DNA of 64,000 nucleotides, from NCBI RefSeq assembly GCF_030384885.1, contig NZ_CP128613.1; one strand, 5' to 3'. Source of the stretch: Escherichia coli. GTDB lineage: Bacteria > Pseudomonadota > Gammaproteobacteria > Enterobacterales > Enterobacteriaceae. The notes under the pieces are model-generated. The model searched no databases. It saw nothing but the letters and a program-made list of their open reading frames with translations, and was not told the DNA's origin. The position numbers were made by a program, and so were the translations under genes. This document shows, piece by piece, positions 15,262 through 61,350 of the stretch (its first letter is position 1; the number at the start of each line of letters is the position of its first letter).

Positions 15262-15993
15262 ATGAAAAAATGGAAAGTACGTAGCGCGTTGGTGGCATTA
15301 GTCGTGCTGCTGGCCGGTTGTTCCAGTAATGCGCAGTATAATAGCAGTGCATCGGGCAATGTCGGCACCGCCTGGGGTGGGGATGTGCACTCAACGGTTC
15401 AGGGCGTATCTGCTGAACGAGCCTGGCGCGATCCGGCAGAGATGATCGTTATTAGTTATTCGACTAATGTTCCTTCCGGCTACGACCGCGTTTATAGCAT
15501 TCGTATTAACGAACTTGAATATGCTATTCGCGATGGTAATTTTAATTCTCTACCTATTACGCGGGTTTATAATTCATCAGGTAAAGAACTACGCTATATA
15601 GTCCATGCCAGAGTAGGAATGAATTACCAATTATATGTCCGCAATTACAGTCGTAACACCAACTACGAGATCGTTGCGACAGTTGATGGCCTGGATGTTC
15701 TCAATGGTAAACAAGGTTCCCTGAATAACAACGGCTATATTGTGAATGCCGGGGATTCGTTGGCGATTAAAGGATTCCGCAAAGATAAACATACCGAAGC
15801 GGCTTTTCAGTTCGCCAACGTTGCTGATTCCTACGCAGCCAATTCGGCGCAAGGCGATGTGCGTAATATCGGTGTAATCGGCTTTGCCGCCTTTGAATTA
15901 CAAGGCCCGGCGCAAAACGCGCTGCCACCGTGCTCTGGACAAGCGTTTCCGGCGGACAACAATGGCTATGCGCCGCCACCGTGTCGGAAATAG
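15262..15993 (+). CDS. Predicted lipoprotein of unknown function (accessory gene between speA and speB)
   Basis: 243-aa ORF; signal peptide plus lipobox LLAGC-SS; Asn/Tyr/Ser-rich mature part; own terminator downstream; AT-richer than neighbours. Confidence 0.7.
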   Translation: MKKWKVRSALVALVVLLAGCSSNAQYNSSASGNVGTAWGGDVHSTVQGVSAERAWRDPAEMIVISYSTNVPSGYDRVYSIRINELEYAIRDGNFNSLPITRVYNSSGKELRYIVHARVGMNYQLYVRNYSRNTNYEIVATVDGLDVLNGKQGSLNNNGYIVNAGDSLAIKGFRKDKHTEAAFQFANVADSYAANSAQGDVRNIGVIGFAAFELQGPAQNALPPCSGQAFPADNNGYAPPPCRK

Positions 15994-20240: not shown

Positions 20241-20266
20241 GGGCCGCGAAAGCGGCCCTTTTTTTA
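20241..20266 (+). terminator. Rho-independent terminator of tktA in the convergent gap
   Basis: gggccgc-gaaa-gcggccc hairpin followed by ttttttt; T-run overlaps the stop of the convergent SPFH gene. Confidence 0.55.
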
Positions 20267-21172
20267 CTTAGTAGAGATAAACGGAACTGTACTGCCGGGG
20301 ATCATGGTATCGGGTAGCTTACCGTCCCAACGCTCAGCAGTGGTGAGGGCAACAAGTCCGGGATTATCCCGCAGAGCTTCACCGCGCAGGCGGATCGCTT
20401 CTGCTTCAGCCGCACTTTTTAAACGAATAGTTTCAGCCTCTGCCGCGCCTCTTACGCGAATAGTCTCAGCTTCTGCTTTGGCTGCCGCCAGTTTACTGTC
20501 TGCTTCTGCCTGGGCCTGAGTTACCGCTATTTGCGCCTGGATTTTCTCTGTTTCCAGATTTTGCTTACGTGTGGCAATGGCGACTTCTGCTTTCATTCGA
20601 TCTTCAATCGATTTTTCATAAGCGTCAGAAAAATCAATATTTTCAATCTGGACACCATCAATCACCACCGGGCCAACAACGGCTTTACGCATTGCATTTT
20701 GCAGATCCTGAACCAGTTTTGTACGATCCTGTACCGCGCTGATGGCGGTATATTGGCCGAAAACGTTCTCCAGTTGAGTTGGCAACTGACGGACAATCAG
20801 ACGATCTTTTAATGCTTCAATGGTGTTGTAGGTGGTATAAACCGCGCCTGCTTCTGAAGGTTTAATGTGGAAGCTGACTGATACTGTCATTTGTGCCGGT
20901 TGCTGGTCGCGGCTGTAGGCCTGTAATCCCTGATAAACCACAGCCTGATTACGCGTGGAAATTTTCTCTACGCTTTCCATAAAAGGGATCTTAAAACCCA
21001 GACCCGGCTCGGCAACTTTTACGATTTTTCCGTAGCGCAGCAAAATGCCGCGTTCACCTTCATTAACGGTGTAATACGAGAGAAATGGCAGCACAACCAC
21101 GGTAAGCACGCCAATGGCGATAGCAATAGATTTTTGTGGGCGAAATGAGGTTATTGAAACAGGTGCTTTCAT
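20264..21172 (-). CDS. SPFH/band-7 (prohibitin/HflC-like) membrane protein, standalone
   Basis: 302-aa ORF; N-terminal TM helix SIAIAIGVLTVVVLPFLSYY, SPFH core, C-terminal Ala/Glu-rich coiled coil with repeated AEAETIRxxG units; RBS aaggaag 9 nt upstream. Confidence 0.8.
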   Translation of the reverse strand: MKAPVSITSFRPQKSIAIAIGVLTVVVLPFLSYYTVNEGERGILLRYGKIVKVAEPGLGFKIPFMESVEKISTRNQAVVYQGLQAYSRDQQPAQMTVSVSFHIKPSEAGAVYTTYNTIEALKDRLIVRQLPTQLENVFGQYTAISAVQDRTKLVQDLQNAMRKAVVGPVVIDGVQIENIDFSDAYEKSIEDRMKAEVAIATRKQNLETEKIQAQIAVTQAQAEADSKLAAAKAEAETIRVRGAAEAETIRLKSAAEAEAIRLRGEALRDNPGLVALTTAERWDGKLPDTMIPGSTVPFISTK

Positions 21173-25682: not shown

Positions 25683-26192
25683 ATGGCGACGCTGACAGAA
25701 GATGATGTGCTTGAGCAACTGGACGCACAGGACAATTTATTGTCATTTATGAAAACTGCACATGCCATTTTGCTCCAGGGGATACGCCAGTTTCTGCCGT
25801 CGCTGTTTGTCGATAACGATGAAGAGATCGTGGAATATGCAGTGAAGCCGTTACTCGCTCAAAGCGGCCCGCTTGACGATATTGATGTTGCGCTACGTTT
25901 GATTTTTGCACTGGGGAAAATGGACAAATGGCTGTACGCCGATATCACGCACTTTTCCCAGTTCTGGCATTACCTGAATGAACAGGATGAAACGCCCGGA
26001 TTTGCCGATGACATTACCTGGGATTTTATCAGCAACGTCAATAGCATAACCCGCAATGCGACGCTCTATGACGCGTTAAAAGCGATGAAGTTCGCTGATT
26101 TCGCCGTCTGGTCAGAGGTGCGTTTTAGTGGGATGGTCAAAACGGCGCTGACGCTGGCAGTAACGACCACCTTAAAGGAATTAACGCCGTGA
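25683..26192 (+). CDS. yggD: MtlR-like protein YggD (annotated as fumarase E in E. coli)
   Basis: 169-aa ORF MATLTEDDVLEQLDAQDNLLSF; synteny. Confidence 0.75.
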   Translation: MATLTEDDVLEQLDAQDNLLSFMKTAHAILLQGIRQFLPSLFVDNDEEIVEYAVKPLLAQSGPLDDIDVALRLIFALGKMDKWLYADITHFSQFWHYLNEQDETPGFADDITWDFISNVNSITRNATLYDALKAMKFADFAVWSEVRFSGMVKTALTLAVTTTLKELTP

Positions 26193-26902
26193 AAATTGAC
26201 TTAACGGTGAATGGTCTGAAGGTACAAGCACAGTACCATGTTGATGAGATAGAAAATGTACATAAACCGTTGCTGCGTATGTTGGCGGCCTTACAGACGG
26301 TAAATCCGCAGCGGCGTACCGTGGTTTTTCTTTGCGCTCCGCCGGGGACGGGTAAATCTACCCTAACCACTTTCTGGGAATATCTCACGCAACAAGACCC
26401 GGAACTACCCACTATTCAGACGCTGCCGATGGATGGTTTTCACCATTACAATAACTGGCTGGATGCGCATCAATTGCGCCCCTTTAAAGGCGCACCAGAG
26501 ACATTCGATGTGGCAAAACTGGTGGAAAATCTGCGCCAGGTAATGGAAGGGGATTGTACGTGGCCGCAGTACGATCGACAAAAGCATGAGCCTGTTGAAG
26601 ATGCGTTGCACGTTACCGCACCACTCGTCATCGTCGAAGGAAACTGGTTGTTGCTGGACGACGAGAAGTGGTGCCAGCTTGCGCAATTTTGTGATTTCTC
26701 GATCTTTATCAACGCGCCAGCTACTGCGTTGCAGGAACGACTGGTGGGGCGCAAGCTGGCGGGAGGGTTATCGCTGGCAGACGCAGAAGCCTTTTATGAC
26801 CGTACCGATGGGCCGAATGTTCGCCGGGTGCTGGAAGAGAGTCTGCCTGCAAATTTGACCTTAATGATGACCGCTACGGGTGAATATCGTCTGGTGGATT
26901 AA
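26189..26902 (+). CDS. yggC: Putative P-loop kinase YggC
   Basis: 237-aa ORF with Walker A PPGTGKST; 4-nt overlap with yggD. Confidence 0.75.
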   Translation: MKIDLTVNGLKVQAQYHVDEIENVHKPLLRMLAALQTVNPQRRTVVFLCAPPGTGKSTLTTFWEYLTQQDPELPTIQTLPMDGFHHYNNWLDAHQLRPFKGAPETFDVAKLVENLRQVMEGDCTWPQYDRQKHEPVEDALHVTAPLVIVEGNWLLLDDEKWCQLAQFCDFSIFINAPATALQERLVGRKLAGGLSLADAEAFYDRTDGPNVRRVLEESLPANLTLMMTATGEYRLVD

Positions 26903-27584
26903 CGTTCCTGATTACACCATCTTCCAGTCGCACCACACGAGAGAAATGACGCCGGGTAAATGCGGCGTCATGACTGATTGCTACGACGCTCGTGCCTCGC
27001 TGGCGGCACTTTTCCAGCCAGCTTTCAAACACGCTCATCCAATTTTCGTCAAAATCCCGACTCGGCTCGTCCAGCAGCAATAGCGGCGGAGAGAGTGCTT
27101 CCAGGCAGGCGACGGCGACCATCCGTCGCTGCGCACTATGCAGATCTAACGGATGCGCGCTGGCAGTGTCTGCTAACTGACAGCATTGCAGGGCAGCATT
27201 GGTACGTTGAGTGATTTCATCCGCCAGGCATTTTTGCAGTTTCAAACCAAATGCGATCTCGTCAGCGACGGTGCTGTGAAAAAGCTGGTTTTCCGCTTCC
27301 TGAAACAGTACGCCAATCTTTGCTGCACGTTGGCGGTTTTTCAGGTTTTTCATCGCCTGTTGTTGCAGTATAACCGTACCGGTTGTGGGCGTAAGAAGAC
27401 CTGCCATTACTCGTAACAGCGTCGATTTTCCCGCGCCATTGTCGCCGGTCAGCGCCAACCATTCACCTTGTTTGAGTTGCAGAGAAATGTCGCAAAGACA
27501 ATCCGTTGCCGCGCCAGGCCAGCGATAAGACATCTGATTTAACGTTAACATAGTGGCTGGAGCGCTCCGTTTTGCAATTGCCAC
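26874..27584 (-). CDS. ECF/ABC transporter ATPase subunit (A2-like, degenerate signature motif)
   Basis: 236-aa ORF (alternative start Met12 at 27551, overlapping upstream stop as ATGnTAA); Walker A GDNGAGKST, Walker B LLLLDEP, H-loop ISHD; signature LHSAQRR instead of LSGGQ; 3' end overlaps yggC convergently. Confidence 0.75.
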   Translation of the reverse strand: MAIAKRSAPATMLTLNQMSYRWPGAATDCLCDISLQLKQGEWLALTGDNGAGKSTLLRVMAGLLTPTTGTVILQQQAMKNLKNRQRAAKIGVLFQEAENQLFHSTVADEIAFGLKLQKCLADEITQRTNAALQCCQLADTASAHPLDLHSAQRRMVAVACLEALSPPLLLLDEPSRDFDENWMSVFESWLEKCRQRGTSVVAISHDAAFTRRHFSRVVRLEDGVIRNVNPPDDIHP

Positions 27585-28228
27585 GCTTGCTGGCAGTAGT
27601 TCAGGAAAGGTGTGCGATGACGTTCAAAAAGAATAATCAGCGAACCACGTTCAAACGCCCAGTGTTGTAAGCGCTGCAACAGCATTTCGCTGGCCTGCGG
27701 CGTCAGGCGACTAAAGGCTTCATCAAGAATTAATAGTTTTGGCTGCATCGCGATGGCGCAGGCGATGACCACGCGCTGTGTCTCTCCACCGGAGAGTGTT
27801 GCCGGGTGACGATGGCGCAACGGCTGGCACTCGGTCAGAGTCAGGGCGGCATCAATCCGCGCCATAATCTCCTCTTCAGCAAGACACAGATTTTCTGGCC
27901 CAAAGGCAACTTCTTCTTCCACGCTAAAGGTACAGCCGGAGAGCTGCAAATAGGGCGATTGCTGAACGAGCTGGATGGTGGCGGATTGTTCATTAAGCGG
28001 GAGATACCCAATGGGCGTACCGAGAAGCGTCCCCGTGCCGGTTATCTCTCCTGGCAGAAAGTCCGGATACCAGCCCGCCATCAGTTGCGCCAGCGTACTT
28101 TTGCCACAGCCGTTGTCGCCAAAGATGGCGACTATCCCCGGTTTGACATAGTGAAAGTCATAACAGAACGGAGGGTGCGTTGAGTGTGTCGGGCAATAGC
28201 GAAACTGTTCTAACGTAACCATATCCAC
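27545..28228 (-). CDS. ECF/ABC transporter ATPase subunit (A1-like)
   Basis: 227-aa ORF; Walker A GDNGCGKST, signature LSGGETQR, Walker B LLILDEA. Confidence 0.75.
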   Translation of the reverse strand: MDMVTLEQFRYCPTHSTHPPFCYDFHYVKPGIVAIFGDNGCGKSTLAQLMAGWYPDFLPGEITGTGTLLGTPIGYLPLNEQSATIQLVQQSPYLQLSGCTFSVEEEVAFGPENLCLAEEEIMARIDAALTLTECQPLRHRHPATLSGGETQRVVIACAIAMQPKLLILDEAFSRLTPQASEMLLQRLQHWAFERGSLIILFERHRTPFLNYCQQAWQLQNGALQPLC

Positions 28229-28917
28229 GCTCCGAATTCTGCCAGCATCAGCAAGATCATGGCGTAACGTGCCACTTTTTCCAGGTTACTGTCAGGCGGT
28301 GCCCATAACGTAGTGCGCCGGTTGTGGATCCGAAATGCCCGCATATCCAGCGCCGCACCACGGATAGCCAGATCGTTTAGCGCATTGTGTGTTAGCGGAA
28401 TAATTAGCGCGGGTATAGCACGTAAACGCTGATACCAGCCCTCATCCAGCGGCACGCCACGGGCGCGCTGCGCTTCATGAATAATCGCTAATTGCCGTTT
28501 TAACTGCTCAACGACCAACAAAGGCCCGGCGAACAGATAAGCGACGCCCGGCGGCAGGCGAGAAGCAAACAAAGCGCGGATAAAACGTTGCACTGGGACG
28601 AATTGCATCCACAACTGCGAGGTTGAAACAATCGCGAGAATCCGCAGCCAGAGCGTAATAGCATGCGTCCACCGTTCTGGCGAGCGTGGCGTGCCGTTTA
28701 GCCATTCTGTCAGCCAGCCACCGTGTACCAGCCACAGTCCAGCCCCCAGCGAGAACATCAGCCAGACAACATATTTTGCCCGCCGCCGCGTGGCCTTTAG
28801 CGCAATAAGGCAGAAAAAGGTCGCCGCGCTATAGACTGTCAGTATTGTCTGTGTGGGCAGGATAAGCGTGGTGCAGGCCGCCAGCGCCCACAGCGTTAGG
28901 GATGTAAACGGATGCAT
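28210..28917 (-). CDS. ECF transporter transmembrane (T) component, CbiQ/EcfT family
   Basis: 235-aa polytopic ORF with C-terminal AQRARG and AIRGAALDMRAF motifs typical of EcfT; start abuts stop of upstream gene. Confidence 0.75.
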   Translation of the reverse strand: MHPFTSLTLWALAACTTLILPTQTILTVYSAATFFCLIALKATRRRAKYVVWLMFSLGAGLWLVHGGWLTEWLNGTPRSPERWTHAITLWLRILAIVSTSQLWMQFVPVQRFIRALFASRLPPGVAYLFAGPLLVVEQLKRQLAIIHEAQRARGVPLDEGWYQRLRAIPALIIPLTHNALNDLAIRGAALDMRAFRIHNRRTTLWAPPDSNLEKVARYAMILLMLAEFGAWIWLR

Positions 28918-29499
28918 TTAGCGCACGGCAGCCATTGCCGGAAAATGGCGCGTGGTGCGAATCGGCAGCTGACGCAGTAAAAGCCAGACAATCACCGCTG
29001 TAAGAATTTTATCGACCAGGTTTGCGCCTATCACCGTAATCGCCACCGACTCCACCAGGTTTTGCCCCATAGAGTGCATCCAGGCAACGAACAAATCGGC
29101 TCCGCTACCGGTGACACCGCCGAACAGCGCAGTACGCAGCGGTACAGCGACGACCGTTACTGCAAGCGTAATAATCACGCCGCTGACAACGACTTTTGGC
29201 AGGGTGCGAAACCAACCCGCTCGCGCCAGCCAACCGGCGACCAAGCCAATAACCATCGCCACGGGGGCAAAGGCGGCGGCGATCGGGTCGGTGAGCAATC
29301 CCCAGAGTAAATTGGTCAGTAAGCCGGTCAGCATCCCGATCACCGGACCAAGCAGTACCGCGCTAATAAGTGTGCCGATGGAGTCGAGAAATATAGGTAA
29401 TTTGACCATGCTGGCCAGTTGCCCGCCAATCATATTGATGGCGATAGAGATAACAATCAACACCAGTGCTTGACTGGAAAAGTGGCGACGCGCCATAAG
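28918..29499 (-). CDS. ECF transporter substrate-specific (S) component-like membrane protein
   Basis: About 193 aa from Met33 (ORF could start at 29595); about six TM helices; LPIFLDSIGT motif resembling ECF S components (YkoE/ThiW-like); substrate unknown. Confidence 0.65.
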   Translation of the reverse strand, partial: LMARRHFSSQALVLIVISIAINMIGGQLASMVKLPIFLDSIGTLISAVLLGPVIGMLTGLLTNLLWGLLTDPIAAAFAPVAMVIGLVAGWLARAGWFRTLPKVVVSGVIITLAVTVVAVPLRTALFGGVTGSGADLFVAWMHSMGQNLVESVAITVIGANLVDKILTAVIVWLLLRQLPIRTTRHFPAMAAVR

Positions 29500-29518
29500 A
29501 AAACCTCTCTGAAAGTAG

Positions 29519-29950
29519 TTATTTAACGGGGGAAATATGCAATTCGTCGTAACCAGAAAGCGCGCAAGGTTGGCGGCTAAACGCCAGCTCCTCAAGGCAG
29601 CCGATCACCAGTTCAAGCGTGGTCCGCACGGTACAGCCGGGCATCATATGACCGCCAAGTATCGTGCCGTGTGGATCGGAAACGCAGAGATGAAGATGTT
29701 CACCACTCTGTTCCAGTGTGCCGTTCAATGCGATGACTTCGAACTTACCGCTTAGTAGGGCCGTGTTTTCTTGCCCGGCATAGCGTAAGGCGACGTCAGT
29801 CAGACTGCCGGTACAACCTGCAATCCACGCGGCGTGGAGTTGTTGTTGCTGCGCGAAGGCGCGTAATTGGGAGAGAACTTCCTGTCCTGGGAGCAGGCGC
29901 AGCGCGTAAAAGCGTGCGGAGGAAGAATATGGGTAGGGCAATGTCATCAT
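29519..29950 (-). CDS. DUF296/PPC-domain protein (first gene of the ECF module)
   Basis: 143-aa ORF; pattern RLLPGQEVLSQL...AWIAGCTGSL...LSGKFEVIALNGTL...HLHLCVSD...GGHMMPGCTVRTTLELVI fits the PPC (DUF296) fold consensus. Confidence 0.7.
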   Translation of the reverse strand: MMTLPYPYSSSARFYALRLLPGQEVLSQLRAFAQQQQLHAAWIAGCTGSLTDVALRYAGQENTALLSGKFEVIALNGTLEQSGEHLHLCVSDPHGTILGGHMMPGCTVRTTLELVIGCLEELAFSRQPCALSGYDELHISPVK

Positions 29951-35765: not shown

Positions 35766-36506
35766 GTGAAGTTCAAAGTTATCGCCCTGGCGGCATTAAT
35801 GGGTATTAGCGGGATGGCAGCGCAGGCTAACGAATTGCCGGATGGACCGCATATTGTCACCTCCGGTACGGCAAGCGTGGATGCGGTGCCAGACATTGCC
35901 ACTCTTGCGATTGAAGTCAACGTGGCCGCGAAGGATGCCGCTACTGCCAAGAAACAGGCGGATGAGCGCGTCGCACAATACATTTCCTTCCTTGAACTCA
36001 ATCAGATCGCGAAAAAAGATATCAGCTCAGCGAACTTACGCACCCAGCCAGATTATGATTATCAGGATGGTAAAAGTATCCTGAAAGGCTACCGTGCTGT
36101 GAGAACGGTGGAAGTCACGCTCCGTCAGTTAGACAAACTGAATTCCTTGCTGGATGGTGCGCTGAAGGCGGGTCTTAACGAAATTCGTTCTGTATCGCTG
36201 GGCGTGGCGCAGCCGGATGCCTATAAAGACAAAGCGCGTAAGGCAGCGATTGATAACGCGATTCATCAGGCGCAGGAACTGGCGAACGGCTTTCATCGTA
36301 AACTAGGGCCGGTATATAGCGTGCGCTACCATGTTTCCAACTATCAGCCCAGCCCAATGGTGCGGATGATGAAAGCCGATGCCGCGCCGGTCTCAGCCCA
36401 GGAAACTTACGAGCAGGCTGCTATTCAGTTTGATGATCAGGTCGATGTGGTCTTCCAGTTAGAACCTGTGGATCAACAACCCGCTAAAACACCTGCCGCA
36501 CAATAA
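35766..36506 (+). CDS. yggE: DUF541 periplasmic protein YggE (oxidative-stress associated)
   Basis: 246-aa ORF with signal peptide MKFKVIALAALMGISGMAAQA. Confidence 0.85.
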   Translation: MKFKVIALAALMGISGMAAQANELPDGPHIVTSGTASVDAVPDIATLAIEVNVAAKDAATAKKQADERVAQYISFLELNQIAKKDISSANLRTQPDYDYQDGKSILKGYRAVRTVEVTLRQLDKLNSLLDGALKAGLNEIRSVSLGVAQPDAYKDKARKAAIDNAIHQAQELANGFHRKLGPVYSVRYHVSNYQPSPMVRMMKADAAPVSAQETYEQAAIQFDDQVDVVFQLEPVDQQPAKTPAAQ

Positions 36507-36673
36507 TACTTGTAGCCCGACGTATTGGTCGGGCTAATGCCTTTACCCGATATTGCCTCCTTTTTCTGTAATTTTCTGTAAAACCATGACGTAATCACCT
36601 ATCTTTGCTCGCGGTTTCATCAAGGATAGGCTGACTGAAACGGTTAAGCGGACAAGGATGCGGGGGAGCGGGG

Positions 36674-37570
36674 ATGGACATTTTTATTTCGAAAAAGATG
36701 CGCAATTTCATTTTATTAGCGCAAACCAATAATATTGCCCGGGCGGCAGAAAAAATCCATATGACGGCTTCGCCATTTGGCAAAAGCATTGCCGCGCTGG
36801 AAGAACAAATTGGCTATACGCTATTTACCCGCAAAGATAATAATATCAGCCTCAATAAAGCCGGGCAGGAACTGTATCAAAAACTGTTCCCGGTTTATCA
36901 ACGGCTTTCTGCGATTGATAATGAAATCCATAACTCAGGACGTCGTTCACGAGAAATTGTGATAGGCATAGATAATACTTATCCGACCATTATTTTTGAT
37001 CAGTTGATTAGTCTCGGAGATAAGTACGAAGGCGTGACCGCCCAGCCAGTTGAGTTCAGCGAAAACGGCGTTATCGATAATCTTTTTGACCGTCAGTTAG
37101 ATTTTATAATCTCCCCACAGCATGTATCTGCACGAGTTCAGGAACTGGAAAACCTGACTATCAGTGAACTACCACCGCTGCGATTGGGCTTTCTCGTTTC
37201 TCGCCGTTATGAAGAGCGACAAGAGCAAGAGTTGCTTCAGGAGCTACCGTGGCTACAAATGCGCTTTCAGAACCGGGCCAACTTCGAAGCAATGATTGAT
37301 GCGAATATGCGTCCTTGTGGGATCAATCCCACCATTATTTATCGACCTTACAGTTTTATGGCCAAAATCAGCGCCGTGGAGCGCGGACATTTTCTGACGG
37401 TGATCCCGCATTTTGCCTGGCGACTGGTGAATCCGGCAACGCTGAAATATTTTGATGCGCCGCACAAGCCGATGTATATGCAGGAATATCTTTATTCAAT
37501 CAGAAATCATCGATATACCGCCACGATGCTTCAGCATATTGCTGAAGATCGTGACGGGACGAGTCATTAA
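36674..37570 (+). CDS. ygfI: LysR-family transcriptional regulator YgfI
   Basis: 298-aa ORF; N-terminal HTH; convergent 4-nt overlap with scpC. Confidence 0.8.
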   Translation: MDIFISKKMRNFILLAQTNNIARAAEKIHMTASPFGKSIAALEEQIGYTLFTRKDNNISLNKAGQELYQKLFPVYQRLSAIDNEIHNSGRRSREIVIGIDNTYPTIIFDQLISLGDKYEGVTAQPVEFSENGVIDNLFDRQLDFIISPQHVSARVQELENLTISELPPLRLGFLVSRRYEERQEQELLQELPWLQMRFQNRANFEAMIDANMRPCGINPTIIYRPYSFMAKISAVERGHFLTVIPHFAWRLVNPATLKYFDAPHKPMYMQEYLYSIRNHRYTATMLQHIAEDRDGTSH

Positions 37571-39045
37571 CCCAGCATCGAGCCGGTTGCGATTAAATTA
37601 CGGTGTAAGTCAAAGACGTGGCTAAGATCGTGGTGAATATGTCCGCCGGGCGCATTTTCCAGATAGCGATGCAGATAATCCCGATACATAGGATGTGCAC
37701 AATTATCAATGATGGTGCGGGCGCGTTGAAGCGGGGAAAGACCACGCAGATCGGCGATCCCTTGTTCGGTGATGATCACTTTGACGCTGTGTTCGCTGTG
37801 ATCAACATGGCTGCACATTGGCACGACGGTTGAGATCTTGCCTTCTTTAGCAATCGACGGGGCCATAAAGATCGACAGATACGCGTTGCGTTCAAAATCA
37901 CCGCTGCCACCGATGCCGTTCATCAGATCGACCCCGGCTACGTGCGTTGAGTTGGCATGCCCGTAAATATCAAACTCCAGGCCGACGTTCAGAGCGATGA
38001 CGCCCAGACGACGGATGATTTCCGGGTTATTGGAAATCTCCTGCGGACGCAACACAATGCGGCTGGCAAAGTAATCCATATTGTCGTAAATCTTGCGCAG
38101 GGAATCGGCCGAGATAGTCAGGCTGGAGGCGCTGGCCCCGCTGATTTTGCCCGTTTCCAGTAAATGCACCACCGATTCCTGTAGCACTTCCGAATACATC
38201 ATGAACGGAGGAATTTCCGGGTTTTCCCCTAGTCGCGCCATGACTGCATTATTGATATTGCCCACGCCACTTTGCAGCGGCAGAAATTCCGGCGGAATAC
38301 GCCCATGCGCCATTTCCTGCAACAAGAACGTGACCACGTTATCGGCAATCTGCTGGCACATGGGATTTTGCTTATCCAGCATATTACCGGCGTCGGGCAA
38401 GTTGGTTTCCACGACGGCGACAATCTTTTTCGGATCGATTTGCACATAGCGGGTACCGACGCGATCCATTGCATGGAAGATCGACACGCTATTGCGCCGC
38501 GGTGGCGCGCCAGGAATCACAATATCCGCCAGTTCTGCAACGCGCGGATCGTGATAGTGATTGAGTTCAATGATCACTTTCTTCGCCCGCAGCAGCCAGG
38601 TCGGCGCATTACCGATCCCGCTGGTTAACCAGACTCGACCATCCGGTGCCAGTGCCGATGCTTCAATGACGGCAACATCAATTTCGCCGAAGAAACCGTA
38701 ATTGACCATTTGCGCCACTTCGCTCAAATGCAGGTCAACGAAACTCACCGCGCCCTGATTGATCTTTTTACGTAAACCGGACGATGTTTGATATGGCGCA
38801 CGCCAGGAAACAGCATCGGCGTCAGAAAGTACATCGTCAGCGGCGGCGCTGATTGACGCCCCCGTCAGCAGGCGGATTTGATACGGCTTTTTGGCCTCAT
38901 GCTGTTCGTTAGCTCTGCGGGCAATCGCGTTGGGTAGGGCTTTCGGCGAACCCGCCGGGGTAAAGCCGCTAAATGCCACCATGTCGTTATGCTGGATAAT
39001 TTCTGCCGCTTCATCGGCGGTCATCCTTGTCCACTGAGTTTCCAT
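37567..39045 (-). CDS. scpC: Propionyl-CoA:succinate CoA transferase
   Basis: 492-aa ORF METQWTRMTADEAAEIIQHNDMVAFSGF; last gene of sbm operon. Confidence 0.9.
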   Translation of the reverse strand: METQWTRMTADEAAEIIQHNDMVAFSGFTPAGSPKALPNAIARRANEQHEAKKPYQIRLLTGASISAAADDVLSDADAVSWRAPYQTSSGLRKKINQGAVSFVDLHLSEVAQMVNYGFFGEIDVAVIEASALAPDGRVWLTSGIGNAPTWLLRAKKVIIELNHYHDPRVAELADIVIPGAPPRRNSVSIFHAMDRVGTRYVQIDPKKIVAVVETNLPDAGNMLDKQNPMCQQIADNVVTFLLQEMAHGRIPPEFLPLQSGVGNINNAVMARLGENPEIPPFMMYSEVLQESVVHLLETGKISGASASSLTISADSLRKIYDNMDYFASRIVLRPQEISNNPEIIRRLGVIALNVGLEFDIYGHANSTHVAGVDLMNGIGGSGDFERNAYLSIFMAPSIAKEGKISTVVPMCSHVDHSEHSVKVIITEQGIADLRGLSPLQRARTIIDNCAHPMYRDYLHRYLENAPGGHIHHDLSHVFDLHRNLIATGSMLG

Positions 39046-39068
39046 TTTTACTCCTTCGATCGCAGGGA

Positions 39069-39854
39069 TTAATGACCAACGAAATTAGGTTTACGTTTTT
39101 CGAGGAAAGCGTTCATCCCTTCCTGGTAATCTTCGCTGTCATAAACCGCGCGGCGCATCCCCTGAATACGTTCAAATTCATCGGAGTTCATGGTGTGCGC
39201 TTCGCCCAGTACACGCAGTTCTTCTTTGATAACGGCAATGGCTAACGGCGCTTTCTCAGAGATGTGGTGCGCCATTTGTAAGGTGAAATCTTCCAGTTCT
39301 TCCACTTCCACAACATGGTTGAGGATGCCGACAGCCAGCGCGCGCTGGGCTGTGATTGGCGAAGCGGTAAAAATCAGCTCTTTGACAATGTGGAAGCCCG
39401 CGTCGCGGGTCAGGTTGTGAATGCCGACCAGGTTATACGGGACGCCGAGGTTTACAGGCGTCATTGAGAAGGTTGAGGTACTGGCGGCGATGATCAGATC
39501 GGAACTCATGATCATTTCAAATGCGCCCCCCCAAACACTACCTTCCACCATCGAAATGATCGGTTTCGGGAATTTTTGGATCATGCGGGTGATTTGACGC
39601 AACGGATCATCATAGGAGAGCGGATCGCGACCGCCAGACGGCAGTTCGTGAATATCGTGACCTGCGGAGAAGACTTTGGATCCACTCGGCGCGCGCAAAA
39701 TGATACAGCGAATTTCCGGCCGGTTGAGATCGCTTAATGCCTGCATAAGATCATCAATAAAGACTTTACTTAAGGCATTAAGTTTTCGGCCATAGTTAAA
39801 CTCAATGACCGCCACTTTGTTGATAGTGACAACGTTCACATACTGATAAGACAT
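39069..39854 (-). CDS. scpB: Methylmalonyl-CoA decarboxylase (crotonase family)
   Basis: 261 aa from internal Met MSYQYVNVVTINKVAVIEFNYGRKLNAL. Confidence 0.9.
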   Translation of the reverse strand: MSYQYVNVVTINKVAVIEFNYGRKLNALSKVFIDDLMQALSDLNRPEIRCIILRAPSGSKVFSAGHDIHELPSGGRDPLSYDDPLRQITRMIQKFPKPIISMVEGSVWGGAFEMIMSSDLIIAASTSTFSMTPVNLGVPYNLVGIHNLTRDAGFHIVKELIFTASPITAQRALAVGILNHVVEVEELEDFTLQMAHHISEKAPLAIAVIKEELRVLGEAHTMNSDEFERIQGMRRAVYDSEDYQEGMNAFLEKRKPNFVGH

Positions 39855-39864
39855 AAAAATTCCT

Positions 39865-40860
39865 TTAATCAAAATATTGCGTCTGGATAAATTCACTGAG
39901 CTGTCGCAGGCCGGTGCGCGGTGAGAGCGTATTGTTTTTGACCGCTAAAAGCGTCTGGCGGTAATAGCGATCGAAATCTTCATTCGCGAACAGGTGATTC
40001 AGTACTTCTTCTTCGGTTTGTTTACGCAGCCATTCCACCGATTGTTGTTGCCGCACTTGCTGTAAACGACCACTGGCAGTTAGCGCGGTTTTGAAGTCGA
40101 TGATGGCGTGCCAGATCTCATCGATTCCACGTTTTTCCAGTGCGCTACAAGTCAGAACTCGTGGCTGCCATTCGTCGTATTTACGTCGCAGAATATGCAG
40201 GGCACTCTCGTACATATGCCGGGCAATGGCGACATTGGTATGGTTATCGCCATCGTCTTTGTTGATAACGATCAGATCTGCCACTTCCATCAGCCCCTTT
40301 TTAATCCCCTGCAGATCATCGCCGCCACCGGCAATTTGCAACGAGATAAAACAGTCCACCATGCGGGCAACTTCCGTTTCCGACTGTCCGACGCCAACCG
40401 TTTCGACAATCACTACGTCATAACCCGCCGCTTCGCATAACAGCATTAATTCCCGCGCTCGCTGACTGGCACCGCCCAGATGGCCGGAGGATGGTACCGG
40501 GCGAATAAACGCCGCCTCGGCACGCGCCAGGTCATTCATGCGGGTTTTATCCCCGAGAATGCTACCGCCAGTGACCGGGCTGCTGGGATCGACCGCAATA
40601 ACTGCAACCTTTAATCCCTCACGAATCAACAACATGCCAAAGGCTTCAAGAAAGGTACTTTTCCCCGCGCCGGGTGTGCCGGTAACACCCAGTCGCAGGG
40701 CGTTACCACAGAACGGCATAATGGCATCAAGCAGTTGCGTACTTAGCGCCTGATGACGCGGGTGACGGCTTTCCACCAGCGTCATGGCCTGGGCGAGCGT
40801 GGCACGCTCACCCTGACGTAAGCGGCGAATACTTTCTGCCAGCGTGGCTTCATTAATCAT
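39865..40860 (-). CDS. argK: Methylmalonyl-CoA mutase-associated GTPase (MeaB/ArgK)
   Basis: 331-aa ORF with P-loop GTPGAGKST; 8-nt overlap with scpA. Confidence 0.9.
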
Positions 40861-42997
40861 GATGCTGGCTTATCAGATTCAGTACGTCGCGCACGCTGTC
40901 GAGCATAGGCGTACCTGGACCATAAATCGCCGCCACGCCGCGCTCCTGCAGGAAGGCGTAATCCTGCGGTGGAATGACGCCACCCGCGACCACGAAAATA
41001 TCTTCGCGATTCCATTTCTTCAGCGCTTCGACCAGTTCCGGGATCAGCGTTTTATGACCGGCAGCCAGTGAAGATGCGCCCACTATGTGAACGTCGTTTT
41101 CTACTGCCAGGCGGGCGATCTCTTCAGGTGTAGAGAACATCGGGCTTAAATCTACGTCGAAACCGAGATCGGAATAGGCGCTGGCGATCACTTTCGCGCC
41201 GCGATCGTGCCCATCCTGGCCCATTTTGGCGATCAGAATGCGCGGGCGACGACCATTGTCGGCAAGGAACTGCTCTGTTTGCGCAACAATGGCATCGAAC
41301 TCGGAGGCCGATTTTTCCGACTGATGATAGCTTTGCGCAATTACGCCGGTAACACACTGGCTTGGCACCAGATAACGGTCAAAAGCGGCTTCCAGCGCAT
41401 CGGATATTTCACCCAGGGTGGCGCGAACGCGAGCGGCATTAACAGCGGCAGCCAGCAGGTTTTCGTTATGCTGTGCGGCGTGAGTCAGGGCGTTCAACGC
41501 GGCGGTTACGGCGGCATCATCACGGGTGGCGCGAATGCGTTCCAGCGAAGCAATTTGCTCGTTACGCACCATCACGTTGTCGATCTCAAGTACATCGGTT
41601 TCGTCTTCGTGATCCAGTTTGTACTTGTTGACACCAACGATGACACGCTTGCCCTGGTCGATCAACGACTGTTCGCGCGCGGAGGCCTCTTCGATCATTC
41701 GTTTTGGCAGACCTGCTTCGATCGCTTTCGCCATGCCACCGGCTTCGTCGATCTGTTGGATAATGGCTCTGGCTTGTTTGACGATTTGATCGGTCAGCGA
41801 TTCAACGTAATAGGATCCGGCCAGTGGATCGACGGTGCGGCAGAGTTCTGATTCTTCCTGAATGATGATCTGGGTATTGCGGGCAATGCGTGCTGAGAAA
41901 TCGGTAGGCAAACCAAGCGCTTCATCAAAGGCGTTGGTATGCAGTGACTGAGTACCGCCCAGCGTTGCAGCCAGTGCTTCAATGGTGGTGCGGATAACGT
42001 TGTTATACGGATCCTGTTCAGTCAGGCTCCAGCCTGAGGTCTGGCAGTGGGTACGCAGCGCCAGTGATTTCGGATCCTGTGCGCCAAATCCACTGACCGC
42101 TTCGCTCCATAAATAACGTGCCGCACGCAACATGGCGACGTTCATAAACAGATCCATGCCAATGCCGAAGAAAAACGACAGGCGAGGAGCGAAGTCATCA
42201 ATTTTCAGCCCAGCGGAGATTGCTGCTTTGATGTACTCAATCCCATCAGCGAGCGTAAATGCTACCTGCTGCACGCAGTTGGCACCCGCTTCACCCATAT
42301 GGTAACCGCTGATACTGATGGTATTAAAGCGAGGCATGTTGCCAGAACACCAGGCAATGATGTCTGCGATAATACGCATTGACGGTTTCGGCGGGTAAAT
42401 ATAGGTGTTGCGGCAGAGATACTCTTTGAGGATATCGTTCTGAATGGTGCCTGTCAGTTTATCGGGCGTAACTCCTTGCTCTTCTGCGGCGACGATATAA
42501 AACGCCAGTACGGGTAACACTGCGCCATTCATGGTCATCGAAACCGACATTTTATCCAGCGGGATCTGGTCGAACAGGACTTTCATATCTTCCACGGTGT
42601 CGATAGCAACGCCCGCTTTGCCGACGTCGCCCGCCACGCGCGGGTTATCGGAGTCGTAGCCACGGTGGGTGGCAAGGTCAAACGCAACGGAAAGACCTTT
42701 TTGCCCGGCGGCCAGGTTACGGCGATAAAAAGCGTTGGACTCTTTTGCTGTTGAAAAACCAGCATACTGACGGATGGTCCACGGTTGGGCGGTATACATA
42801 GTGGCACGCGGGCCACGAACGTAGGGTGGCAAACCAGGAAGGGTACCGGTCACTTCCAGATTATCGAGATCGGCTTCAGTATACAGCGGCTTGATGGCGA
42901 TCCCTTCTGCGGTTTGCTGAACCAGCGAGTCGACAGTTTTCTCCCGACGGCTCAATTCCTTGTTGGCAAGCTGTTGCCACTCCTGCACGTTAGACAT
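40853..42997 (-). CDS. scpA: Methylmalonyl-CoA mutase (sleeping beauty mutase)
   Basis: 714 aa from [24 protein letters not shown]; C-terminal B12-binding domain. Confidence 0.9.
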
Positions 42998-43200
42998 TAT
43001 TTGCTCCATAAAACGCAATCAAAATGAGGGTATTTGCGCTTACGGTGAGCTTTTTACGTGGGTTTGTCGCCAGCAAAAAAAATGCATTCAGACGTCGTTT
43101 TTTGCCGCCTGAGATTTGTCTATTTTGTGATGTGATTCAAGGAATACAAAAAGAACTGGAGGTGATGCCTGGTATGTATTACCAGGCATTATTTGATGGA

Positions 43201-44094
43201 TTATTCCTGACGAAGAACTTTGTGACCATAATCGAGCAACGCATCAGTGACTTTACGCATCATGCGGCTTTCAGGAGCAAAGCGGTGCCAGTAGAGCATC
43301 CGGCGTTGAAATAGCCCTGGCGTTAAGTCAATCAGTTCGCCGCTGGCCAGTTCTTTCTCGATTTGCAGATGTGGGATCATACAGCAGGTGGTCCCCTGAC
43401 GAGCAAGTTGCACGAACGCTTCTGAAGAATTAACGATATGGCAGGGTACGCTGCCTGGAGGCAGATCAAAGTTTTGCTGCAAAAAGGCCTGGTGCATATC
43501 ATCAAGATGGTCAAACGCGACCACTGGCGCTTTCAGTAATGCCGAACGCGTTACGCCGTTAGGGAAATATTTTTCGGCGAACGGTTTTGAGCTGACGAAC
43601 AGATAGTCGAGCGCACCGAGCTTATCGACAAGACAACTCGGTAGCGCCTGATGTTGAATACTCACCGCGCCGACCACTTCGCCGCGACGCAGACGTTCCT
43701 GAGTGCGGGTTTCATCTTCTACCTGCAAGTTGAGGCGGATAGGCGAATCAGCTAACACAGGAGCCAGCGCCGGAAGCAACCACGTCGCCAGACTGTCAGC
43801 GTTGACCGCCAGTGAAAGCAGCAGCGGAGTTGAACCGGTTTGTTCATCGCCCAGCCACTCTTCTTCCAGTAACTCCACCTGGCGTAGCAGTGCCAGCAGT
43901 TTTTGCCCTTGTTCCGTCGGGCGCGGCGGTACGGTACGCACCAACAGCGGCTGCCCGAACATATTTTCCAGTTGCTTAATGCGCTGTGAGACGGCTGATT
44001 GTGTAATGCACAGCTTTTGTGCCGCGCGCTCAAATCCTCGTTCACGTATCACCGCATCCAGTGCCTGTAATGTTCTGTAGTCCGGGCGTTTCAT
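43201..44094 (-). CDS. argP: LysR-family regulator ArgP (IciA)
   Basis: 297 aa from internal Met [43 protein letters not shown]. Confidence 0.9.
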
Positions 44095-44375
44095 TGCTGT
44101 TGTCTGCTCCTGGTAAATGCTTTTTCCTGCACTATGACACAATTTTGCGTCAGGTTGCATATACCGAAGCCGTCGGCGGGTACATTTGTATCAGTGGTTA
44201 AACACGCAGCTTAAAAGATCAGGGATTTGCGCTATTGCATTTCGCTCAGCGAGTTCGCGCCCTGGAGCGGCATACCCAGAACTTTATATGCTTTGTTTGC
44301 GGGGCGAAAGTTTATGGATGAGTTAACCACGCGACTTGCCAACGGGGTCTGAATCGCTTTTTTTTGTATATACTC

Positions 44376-44500
44376 GTCATACTTCAAGTTGCATGTGCTG
44401 CGTCTGCGTTCGCTCACCCCAGTCACTTACTTCTGTAAGCTCCTGGGGATTCACTCTCTTGTCGCCTTCCTGCAACTCGAATTATTTAGAGTATAATGCG
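44376..44500. repeat. ERIC/IRU element (copy 2, inverted) in the argP-rpiA spacer
   Basis: Reverse complement of copy 1 with two substitutions in the central stem region. Confidence 0.8.
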
Positions 44501-44531
44501 AGTGAAATTTCATACCACAGGCGAAACGATC

Positions 44532-46859: not shown

Positions 46860-46995
46860 TGTAACGGTAAAGCCCTCACCGAAGCGAGGGCTTGAAGGAG
46901 AAGGGTTATGATGCGACTTGTCATCATACTGATTGTACTGTTACTCATAAGTTTCCCAGCTTATTAACAGTCAGTCACAGGGGAGGAGCAATCCT
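46860..46995 (-). ncRNA. sibC: Sib-family antisense RNA (SibC) opposite ibsC; boundaries approximate
   Basis: Placed from the known Sib/Ibs architecture (antisense RNA spans the toxin ORF and its RBS); ends not determined from sequence. Confidence 0.45.
46908..46967 (+). CDS. ibsC: Type I toxin IbsC (19-aa hydrophobic peptide)
   Basis: ATG at 46908, MMRLVIILIVLLLISFPAY, stop TAA 46965-46967; preceded by a gaaggag RBS; in the serA-ygfA spacer where the K-12 sibC/ibsC locus lies. Confidence 0.7.
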   Translation: MMRLVIILIVLLLISFPAY

Positions 46996-47067
46996 CCCTT
47001 ACCCTTACTCACTAAATTAGGTTAAAGAATCAACGATGTCAATCAGGGCGATGCAGGTGTGTCGCCC

Positions 47068-47688: not shown

Positions 47689-47874
47689 AGGGAATCTCCG
47701 AGATGCCGCCGCAGGCTGTAACCCTTGAACCCTTGGTTCAAGGTGAATGTGTCGTCACAGTTTTAAGGCTTCTCGGACGGACCGAGCATGCTCACCAACC
47801 GCGGAGCGCCACATTCTTGTGGTATGAAATATCGGCTCAGGGGACTGGCCCGCTTGCGAACATCTCAGAGAAAT
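47689..47874 (-). ncRNA. ssrS: 6S RNA
   Basis: Reverse complement reads AUUUCUCUGAGAUGUUCGCAAGCGGGCCAGUCCCCUGAGCCGAUAUUUCAUACCACAAGAAUGUGGCGCUCCGCGG...GGAGAUUCCCU, matching the E. coli 6S RNA from memory. Confidence 0.9.

Positions 47875-61170: not shown

Positions 61171-61350
<180 letters not shown>

Follow-up and report, generated by a model that had tools for sequence, protein, structure and literature searches.

The genes scpA, argK, scpB, and scpC lie on the minus strand at positions 37567-42997 of the window (the whole 64,000-nucleotide stretch of Escherichia coli DNA analyzed here, from contig NZ_CP128613.1 of RefSeq assembly GCF_030384885.1), according to both the listing of open reading frames (ORFs) and the RefSeq annotation of a genome with a sequence identical to that of the window over positions 36500-44500. 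All four genes start with ATG, end with TAA, and contain zero internal stops, and they are closely packed: scpA and argK overlap by 8 nt (40853-40860), and the argK-scpB and scpB-scpC junctions are gaps of 10 nt and 23 nt, each with a Shine-Dalgarno sequence. At the other end of the operon, scpC overlaps the convergent gene srsR (ygfI) by 4 nt (37567-37570). Both overlaps had been claimed in the original prediction for this DNA, and both are present exactly. The prediction had also placed a LysR-type regulator beside the operon, and srsR is indeed there (36674..37570, plus strand; NF047842, 635 bits, cutoff 425); a second LysR-type regulator gene directly upstream, argP (iciA; 43201..44094, minus strand; NF002964, 418 bits, cutoff 197), had been overlooked. 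SrsR and ArgP each differ from their K-12 counterparts by 1 amino acid.

The first gene, scpA (sbm; 40853..42997, minus strand), encodes an adenosylcobalamin-dependent methylmalonyl-CoA mutase of 714 amino acids (NCBIfam NF006944, 1250.2 bits, cutoff 876), in which TIGR00641 spans N-terminal residues 28-547 and TIGR00640 spans residues 583-713 of the B12-binding C terminus. The alignment of ScpA with human MMUT runs from one end to the other (E value, 1e-277), that with P. shermanii MutB is likewise full length (E value, about 1e-270), and the DGHDRG, RQYAGF, and SGYHM segments and GGVIP loop of ScpA are identical to those of MMUT in the alignment. The roles of these segments are assigned after the P. 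shermanii and human structures; DGHDRG has the form of the cobalamin-coordinating DxHxxG motif. Unlike P. shermanii MutAB, ScpA consists of one large subunit, and the operon has no second gene for a small one. The next gene, argK (ygfD/meaB; 39865..40860, minus strand), encodes the mutase chaperone, a GTPase of the G3E family (331 amino acids; NF006958, 494.5 bits, cutoff 329) in which we found both the P-loop GTPGAGKST and NKDD, the NKxD motif. It aligns with both Methylobacterium MeaB and human MMAA, and over the aligned region only 2 residues set it apart from the near-identical E. coli YgfD of crystal structure 2P67. Downstream, scpB (ygfG; 39069..39854, minus strand) encodes a crotonase-superfamily methylmalonyl-CoA decarboxylase (261 amino acids; NF008506, 487.2 bits, cutoff 257) that matches PDB 1EF8 across residues 1-261. 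The last gene, scpC (ygfH; 37567..39045, minus strand), encodes a propionyl-CoA:succinate CoA transferase (492 amino acids; TIGR03458, 754.3 bits, cutoff 658.7) that contains the YSEV and GIGGSGDF segments and aligns with the acetyl-CoA hydrolase/transferase family structures 2NVV and AarC 4EU3. In the NCBIfam profile search, family E values of the genes ranged from 0 to 1e-147, so chance matches are far out of the question. Compared with MMUT/MutAB-type systems, the operon adds a crotonase-type decarboxylase that is independent of biotin, along with a CoA transferase, and encodes no epimerase (PMC5512728).

The operon of K-12 MG1655 (sbm-ygfD-ygfG-ygfH, b2917-b2920) has the same gene order, gene lengths, and 8-nt and 4-nt overlaps, and it has the same flanks, with argP upstream and srsR convergent downstream. 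Proteins are 99.2 to 100% identical between the two, with twelve amino acid substitutions in total: six in ScpA (H27Q, I398V, V537A, V638I, G663N, and C668F, of which G663N and C668F fall within the B12-binding domain), two in ArgK (Y50F and T54A), none in ScpB, and four in ScpC (N11D, T39N, D121E, and V277E). Nucleotide divergence is 1.1 to 3.0% and nearly all synonymous, as are all 9 differences in scpB. The claim that the four genes are full length is borne out by the K-12 lengths, by scores above the NCBIfam cutoffs, and by stop-free frames, and a comparison with K-12 for frameshifts and premature stops found none in the given sequence. With four genes in K-12 order on one strand, coupled or short junctions, and argP and srsR on either side, the locus is very probably the canonical E. 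coli chromosomal operon scpA-argK-scpB-scpC (sbm), intact as in the ancestral state, and none of the results contradicts this identification. Its identity and intact state are already known and ordinary. Horizontal acquisition was rejected, as the GC and GC3 contents of the operon resemble those of the flanking genes and its GC content resembles that of the rest of the window, which gives no sign of recent import.

Relative to K-12, dN/dS is 0.040 for scpA, 0.025 for argK, 0 for scpB, and 0.066 for scpC, at a synonymous divergence of roughly 5 to 12%, and these ratios are comparable with those of neighboring housekeeping genes. Values in this range (0.00 to 0.07) indicate purifying selection on all four genes.

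At least 80% of the operon is carried by 4273 of 5426 complete E. coli genomes (about 79%), so intactness is the majority state and nothing special. A junction probe applied to the same 5426 genomes detected one common 4.26-kb (4258-bp) deletion in 1058 of them, which leaves ∼1 kb from the 5′ end of scpA and 154 nt from the 3′ end of scpC. BLAST of deletion loci against the window placed its endpoints at an imperfect 15-nt direct repeat, the left copy of which is TCAATGATGGTGCGG (37706..37720) and the right copy TCAATGGTGGTGCGG (41979..41993), inside scpA. About one in five complete E. coli genomes, among them a derivative of E2348/69, has this deleted form of the scp locus at the same position between srsR and argP, whereas the window is undeleted. 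Other lesions in genomes without an intact operon include an IS1 insertion. Our search for literature on lineage-specific loss of the scp operon found nothing relevant.

Such losses could mean that the operon is an evolutionary relic in the course of being lost and is intact here by chance: an intact copy is missing from about 21% of complete E. coli genomes, through the common deletion in 1058 and other events, e.g., IS1, and the operon has been reported to be silent in laboratory strains (PMC3850637). However, dN/dS is low in all four genes over the synonymous divergence that separates them from K-12, every motif examined is intact, and most losses are a single shared junction, not many independent decays. 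We consider decay of a relic extremely unlikely. Strong purifying selection set against one widespread deletion is a modest pointer to a natural role that is hidden under laboratory conditions.

The 203-nt argP-scpA intergenic region (42998..43200, minus strand), which we compared with K-12 and scanned for promoters and Rfam families, presumably holds the weak native promoter. Positions -158 to -1 of this leader, which contain the scpA ribosome-binding site GGAG (43004-43007, minus strand), are the same as in K-12 save for two substitutions, at -43 and -11; in the hairpin region next to argP, there are 11 differences. The original prediction had proposed a promoter analysis upstream of 42997. 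When this was run, the best sigma-70 hexamer match in the leader was 7/12 under a relaxed search, which covers the sigma-70 consensus only and to which sigma-S or activator-dependent promoters are invisible. The promoter and terminator scan found 5 promoter-like sites versus 8.0 expected in shuffled sequence, none of them within 42998-43200, and the sole nearby site sits on the argP stop codon. No cobalamin riboswitch was detected in the whole window at Rfam gathering thresholds, where the only matches were Sib RNA, 6S RNA, and naRNA4, all outside the locus. Folding of the leader (z = -3.9 for the whole leader) placed a 10-bp stem-loop just past the argP stop codon (43165..43189, minus strand), in which CCTGAT/ATCAGG replaces the CCTGGT/ACCAGG of K-12, paired changes that preserve the stem. 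This stem-loop likely insulates scpA from argP read-through.

In K-12, the operon promoter has been reported to be weak or silent, with native expression too low, and propionate and 1-propanol were undetected in the wild type; output needed plasmid-expressed operon genes plus cyanocobalamin (PMC3850637). The predicted description of the operon as poorly expressed and B12 dependent in E. coli agrees with this literature. Given a promoter-poor leader like that of K-12, we expect expression of the operon to be as weak here as it is in K-12.

The proposed route from succinate to propionate follows K-12 biochemistry, which we extend to this locus from 99 to 100% protein identity. The ArgK GTPase would help to load ScpA with adenosylcobalamin; ScpA would isomerize succinyl-CoA to methylmalonyl-CoA, which ScpB would decarboxylate to propionyl-CoA; and ScpC would pass the CoA on to succinate, which frees propionate and restores succinyl-CoA. 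The four genes are translationally coupled or closely spaced and sit behind the promoter-poor leader. We infer that the mutase activity of ScpA depends on supplied B12, given its 99.2% identity to K-12 ScpA and the work on that strain (PMC3850637, PMC5512728). E. coli does not make B12 de novo and requires an exogenous supply (PMC3850637), and the window contains no genes for cobalamin uptake, adenosylation, or biosynthesis. In one study, the operon lacked the epimerase step, and glucose yielded no propionate unless an epimerase was added; this need is disputed, as the stereochemical argument for it conflicts with an earlier assay coupling ScpA to ScpB, which is discussed in the same paper (PMC5512728). 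The annotation shows no methylmalonyl-CoA epimerase gene within the operon or elsewhere in the window, which matters if ScpB uses the (S) form.

A working pathway would need outside B12, transcription above the native laboratory level, and, by one study, a methylmalonyl-CoA epimerase. The prediction that an intact operon is potentially functional if B12 is supplied stands as regards intactness but is otherwise too generous given the K-12-like leader, with a promoter reported as weak or silent in K-12, the reported epimerase gap, and how commonplace intactness is. That the genes are intact does not show that the pathway is active, and intactness alone does not make the pathway work. The operon is a textbook cryptic pathway, already used by metabolic engineers, and its presence here matters little beyond correct annotation. 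An ECF transporter in the window (26874-29950) was considered as a B12 importer and found unsupported, with no recognizable cobalamin link: the generic ECF model is the only one that its S component matches, the score for CD3073 (a family whose substrate is unknown) is below the cutoff, and no PDB relative was found.

The natural role of the operon may also be something other than succinate fermentation, namely, the handling of propionyl-CoA and methylmalonyl-CoA from amino acid or odd-chain breakdown or from propionate assimilation. Expression of the operon raised amino acid degradation to propionate and permitted isoleucine degradation, and glucose-derived propionate required the added epimerase (PMC5512728); furthermore, the strong purifying selection implies a function that is used in nature despite laboratory silence. 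Yet the published effects come from overexpression in K-12 derivatives rather than from a known natural inducing condition, and nothing in the window bears on the question. We regard this role as possible although not the favored one; if it were true, intactness would matter for a physiology other than that first predicted.

LysR regulators are typically divergent from their targets, with which they share a promoter region. For srsR, this arrangement was not found, as the gene is convergent at the operon 3′ end. Matches to the SrsR box TCAGATTTTGC with up to 2 mismatches numbered 36 in the window versus ~24 expected by chance, and none is in 42998-43200; box matches were rejected as regulatory evidence. 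The scp operon is also absent from the published SrsR gSELEX targets (PMC9181523). ArgP and SrsR are neighbors only, not demonstrated regulators of the operon.

Control of the operon by SrsR, acting either as a transcription factor or via convergent-transcription interference over the 4-nt overlap, is nevertheless suggested by the adjoining, overlapping 3′ ends of srsR and scpC and by lesions in srsR itself. An S92* allele of srsR occurs in 552 genomes, among the genomes that lost the operon, and the E2348/69 derivative without the operon carries an independent 67-bp deletion in srsR. These 552 genomes probably represent one oversampled clone, the lesions noted come from operon-lacking genomes, and srsR is intact in three of the five deletion genomes inspected. 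Together with the convergent layout, the gSELEX target list without scp genes, and the leader without a box, this makes SrsR control very unlikely.

A broader scenario, also unlikely, is that the operon is held by selection in most E. coli lineages and was lost once via a repeat-mediated 4.26-kb deletion, in a lineage with isolates from blood, cerebrospinal fluid (CSF), and urine as well as the E2348/69 derivative, and that srsR then decayed at least two times in this lineage. If true, this would point to a niche-specific role, e.g., one that uses B12 and succinate from other gut microbes, and to a functional link of SrsR with the operon that was missed by genomic SELEX. As a separate observation, some but not all of the deletion genomes have lost srsR along with the operon, and we report this as a lead rather than a finding.

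The scpA-argK-scpB-scpC operon, which encodes the sleeping-beauty-mutase (sbm) pathway, is present in the window as four closely packed genes on one strand with coupled junctions and a 203-nt leader ahead of them. Combining an ORF listing with the RefSeq annotation of an identical stretch, we placed scpA at 40853-42997, argK (meaB) at 39865-40860, scpB at 39069-39854, and scpC at 37567-39045, all on the minus strand, flanked by argP (43201-44094, minus strand) and srsR (ygfI; 36674-37570, plus strand). As in the original prediction, scpA and argK overlap by exactly 8 nt and the convergent scpC and srsR by exactly 4 nt; the two remaining operon junctions are gaps of 10 nt and 23 nt, each with a Shine-Dalgarno sequence. 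A 275-amino-acid reading frame starting at GTG was considered for scpB and rejected in favor of the 261-amino-acid frame with an ATG start, which fits both K-12 and the crystallized protein. The window is a piece of the E. coli chromosome: at least 14 complete genomes, including that of strain 2013C-4282, match positions 36500-44500 with 100% identity. Beyond this stretch, a few SNPs plus one small indel around 45212 separate the window from 2013C-4282, and thus it comes from a close relative.

The original observation that the operon is intact was borne out by comparison with the K-12 MG1655 genes b2917 to b2920. All four genes have the K-12 length, an ATG start, a TAA stop, and no internal stops. 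Nucleotide identity to K-12 is 97.0% for scpA (6 amino acid differences; dN/dS, 0.040), 97.4% for argK (2 differences; 0.025), 98.9% for scpB (no differences; 0), and 98.5% for scpC (4 differences; 0.066). The dN/dS values are as low as in neighboring housekeeping genes; therefore, the operon genes are under purifying selection rather than drifting. GC content is unremarkable.

The identification of the four genes was likewise right, given that the K-12 comparison, curated NCBIfam cutoffs, and structure alignments all agree. Scores exceeded the cutoffs for ScpA (NF006944; 1250 bits versus 876), ArgK (NF006958; 494 versus 329), ScpB (NF008506; 487 versus 257), and ScpC (TIGR03458; 754 versus 659). 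ScpA aligns end to end with mutases from human and Propionibacterium, and its DGHDRG cobalamin motif is preserved. ArgK is essentially the same protein as that in the E. coli YgfD crystal structure (2P67), and its P-loop and NKDD motif are intact; ScpB agrees in sequence with 1EF8 across all 261 residues, and ScpC aligns with CoA-transferase structures. Every testable feature that defines the four enzyme families and the K-12 operon architecture was found, and the operon is a system known before, here in its ordinary form.

By near-identity to the K-12 enzymes and their biochemistry, ScpA, given adenosylcobalamin with the help of ArgK, would convert succinyl-CoA to methylmalonyl-CoA, which ScpB would decarboxylate to propionyl-CoA; ScpC would then move CoA onto succinate and release propionate. 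Propionate and 1-propanol were not detectable in wild-type K-12 cells, and production needed plasmid expression together with at least 0.2 μM cyanocobalamin, the latter because E. coli makes no B12 of its own (PMC3850637). In a later study, the pathway encoded by the operon was judged incomplete, with glucose converted to propionate only once a Propionibacterium epimerase was supplied (PMC5512728). The same study records a conflicting earlier assay in which ScpA was coupled with ScpB, so the need for an epimerase is disputed rather than closed. Within the window, we found no gene for methylmalonyl-CoA epimerase and none for B12 uptake or adenosylation.

The K-12 operon is described as hardly expressed, possibly because its promoter is inactive or weak (PMC3850637). 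In the leader (42998-43200, minus strand), the best sigma-70-like site matches at 7 of 12 positions, and no riboswitch or any other Rfam family was found. A 10-bp hairpin lies just 3' of the argP stop, its stem kept by paired changes relative to K-12. Between -158 and -1, the only departures of the leader from K-12 are at -43 and -11. Judging from this sequence, there is no reason to expect better expression than in K-12. Intact genes do not by themselves amount to function, and the original interpretation is partly supported: the genes were identified correctly, but the proposal that the pathway is potentially functional if B12 is supplied left out of account the presumably weak promoter and the possible need for an epimerase. 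At -11, where K-12 has C, the window has T, and this gives an in-frame ATG (43009-43011, minus strand) located four codons 5' of the annotated scpA start. We rejected it as the start and retained the annotated ATG because the new codon has no Shine-Dalgarno sequence, whereas the annotated one has GGAG at -10 to -7.

The operon has a LysR-type regulator on each side rather than a single one. The adjacency of SrsR had been recognized, although it carries no demonstrated meaning, and ArgP had been missed. ArgP lies upstream on the operon's strand, with the hairpin between argP and scpA; SrsR is convergent with the operon at its 3' end, an arrangement not typical of LysR regulators and their targets. 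Genomic SELEX gave ten target loci in the paper naming SrsR, where the scp genes go unmentioned (PMC9181523), and the SrsR box TCAGATTTTGC has no match in the scpA leader at up to two mismatches. On the other side of argP, the argP-rpiA intergenic region (44095-44531) is a variable spacer, within which 44266-44491 gave no BLAST alignment with its counterpart in other strains; that counterpart is annotated with a short LysR-fragment ORF in those strains and with the yqfE pseudogene in K-12.

At least 80% of the operon occurs in one place in 4,273 of 5,426 complete E. coli genomes (79%), so intactness is the usual state in the species and not distinctive of the window. A probe spanning the deletion junction showed that 1,058 of the 5,426 (19.5%) share the same 4,258-bp deletion, corresponding to window positions 37721-41978 and most of the operon. 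It is flanked by two 15-nt direct repeats, imperfect copies of each other (TCAATGATGGTGCGG and TCAATGGTGGTGCGG; 37706-37720 and 41979-41993). What survives is about 1 kb of scpA together with 154 nt of scpC, and some of these remnants have decayed further through small deletions (53, 28, and 67 bp). Other lesions occur in a few genomes, for example an IS1 insertion removing the stretch from srsR through most of scpA. We found no published description of the shared deletion in the literature searched. The deletion occurs in a derivative of E2348/69, a strain of phylogroup B2, and also in blood, cerebrospinal fluid, and urine isolates; that it is confined to B2 is offered as a hypothesis only.

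Some, not all, of the deletion genomes also have a broken srsR (seen at 1608-2504 in locus L003 and 25761-26660 in locus L010). One allele with S92* and W193* has its exact 63-nt context in 552 genomes, which are probably one heavily sampled clone. In the E2348/69 derivative, an independent 67-bp deletion takes out the srsR stop codon, and in three other deletion genomes srsR is intact. At most, these losses hint that srsR and the operon may be functionally coupled.

Elsewhere in the window, an accessory five-gene cluster between yggC and epd (26874-29950) encodes two ABC ATPases, an ECF T component, an ECF S component, and a PCC/PPC-domain protein; K-12 lacks the cluster, and 3,319 of the 5,426 genomes carry it. 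The only resemblance of the S component is to the CD3073 family, whose substrate is unknown, at a score below the cutoff, and it has no relative in the PDB; neither family models nor the PDB gave any sign of cobalamin import by the cluster. Two genes sit among core genes and are annotated in the E2348/69 derivative as well: one for a 243-amino-acid hypothetical protein between speA and speB (15262-15993) and one for a 302-amino-acid prohibitin/HflC-like protein between tkt and cmtB (20264-21172). K-12 is not known to have either. Rfam searches placed a Sib antitoxin RNA adjoining the ibsC toxin gene (46892-47042), 6S RNA (ssrS; 47691-47874), and naRNA4 (61178-61255), all expected in E. coli and all outside the operon locus.
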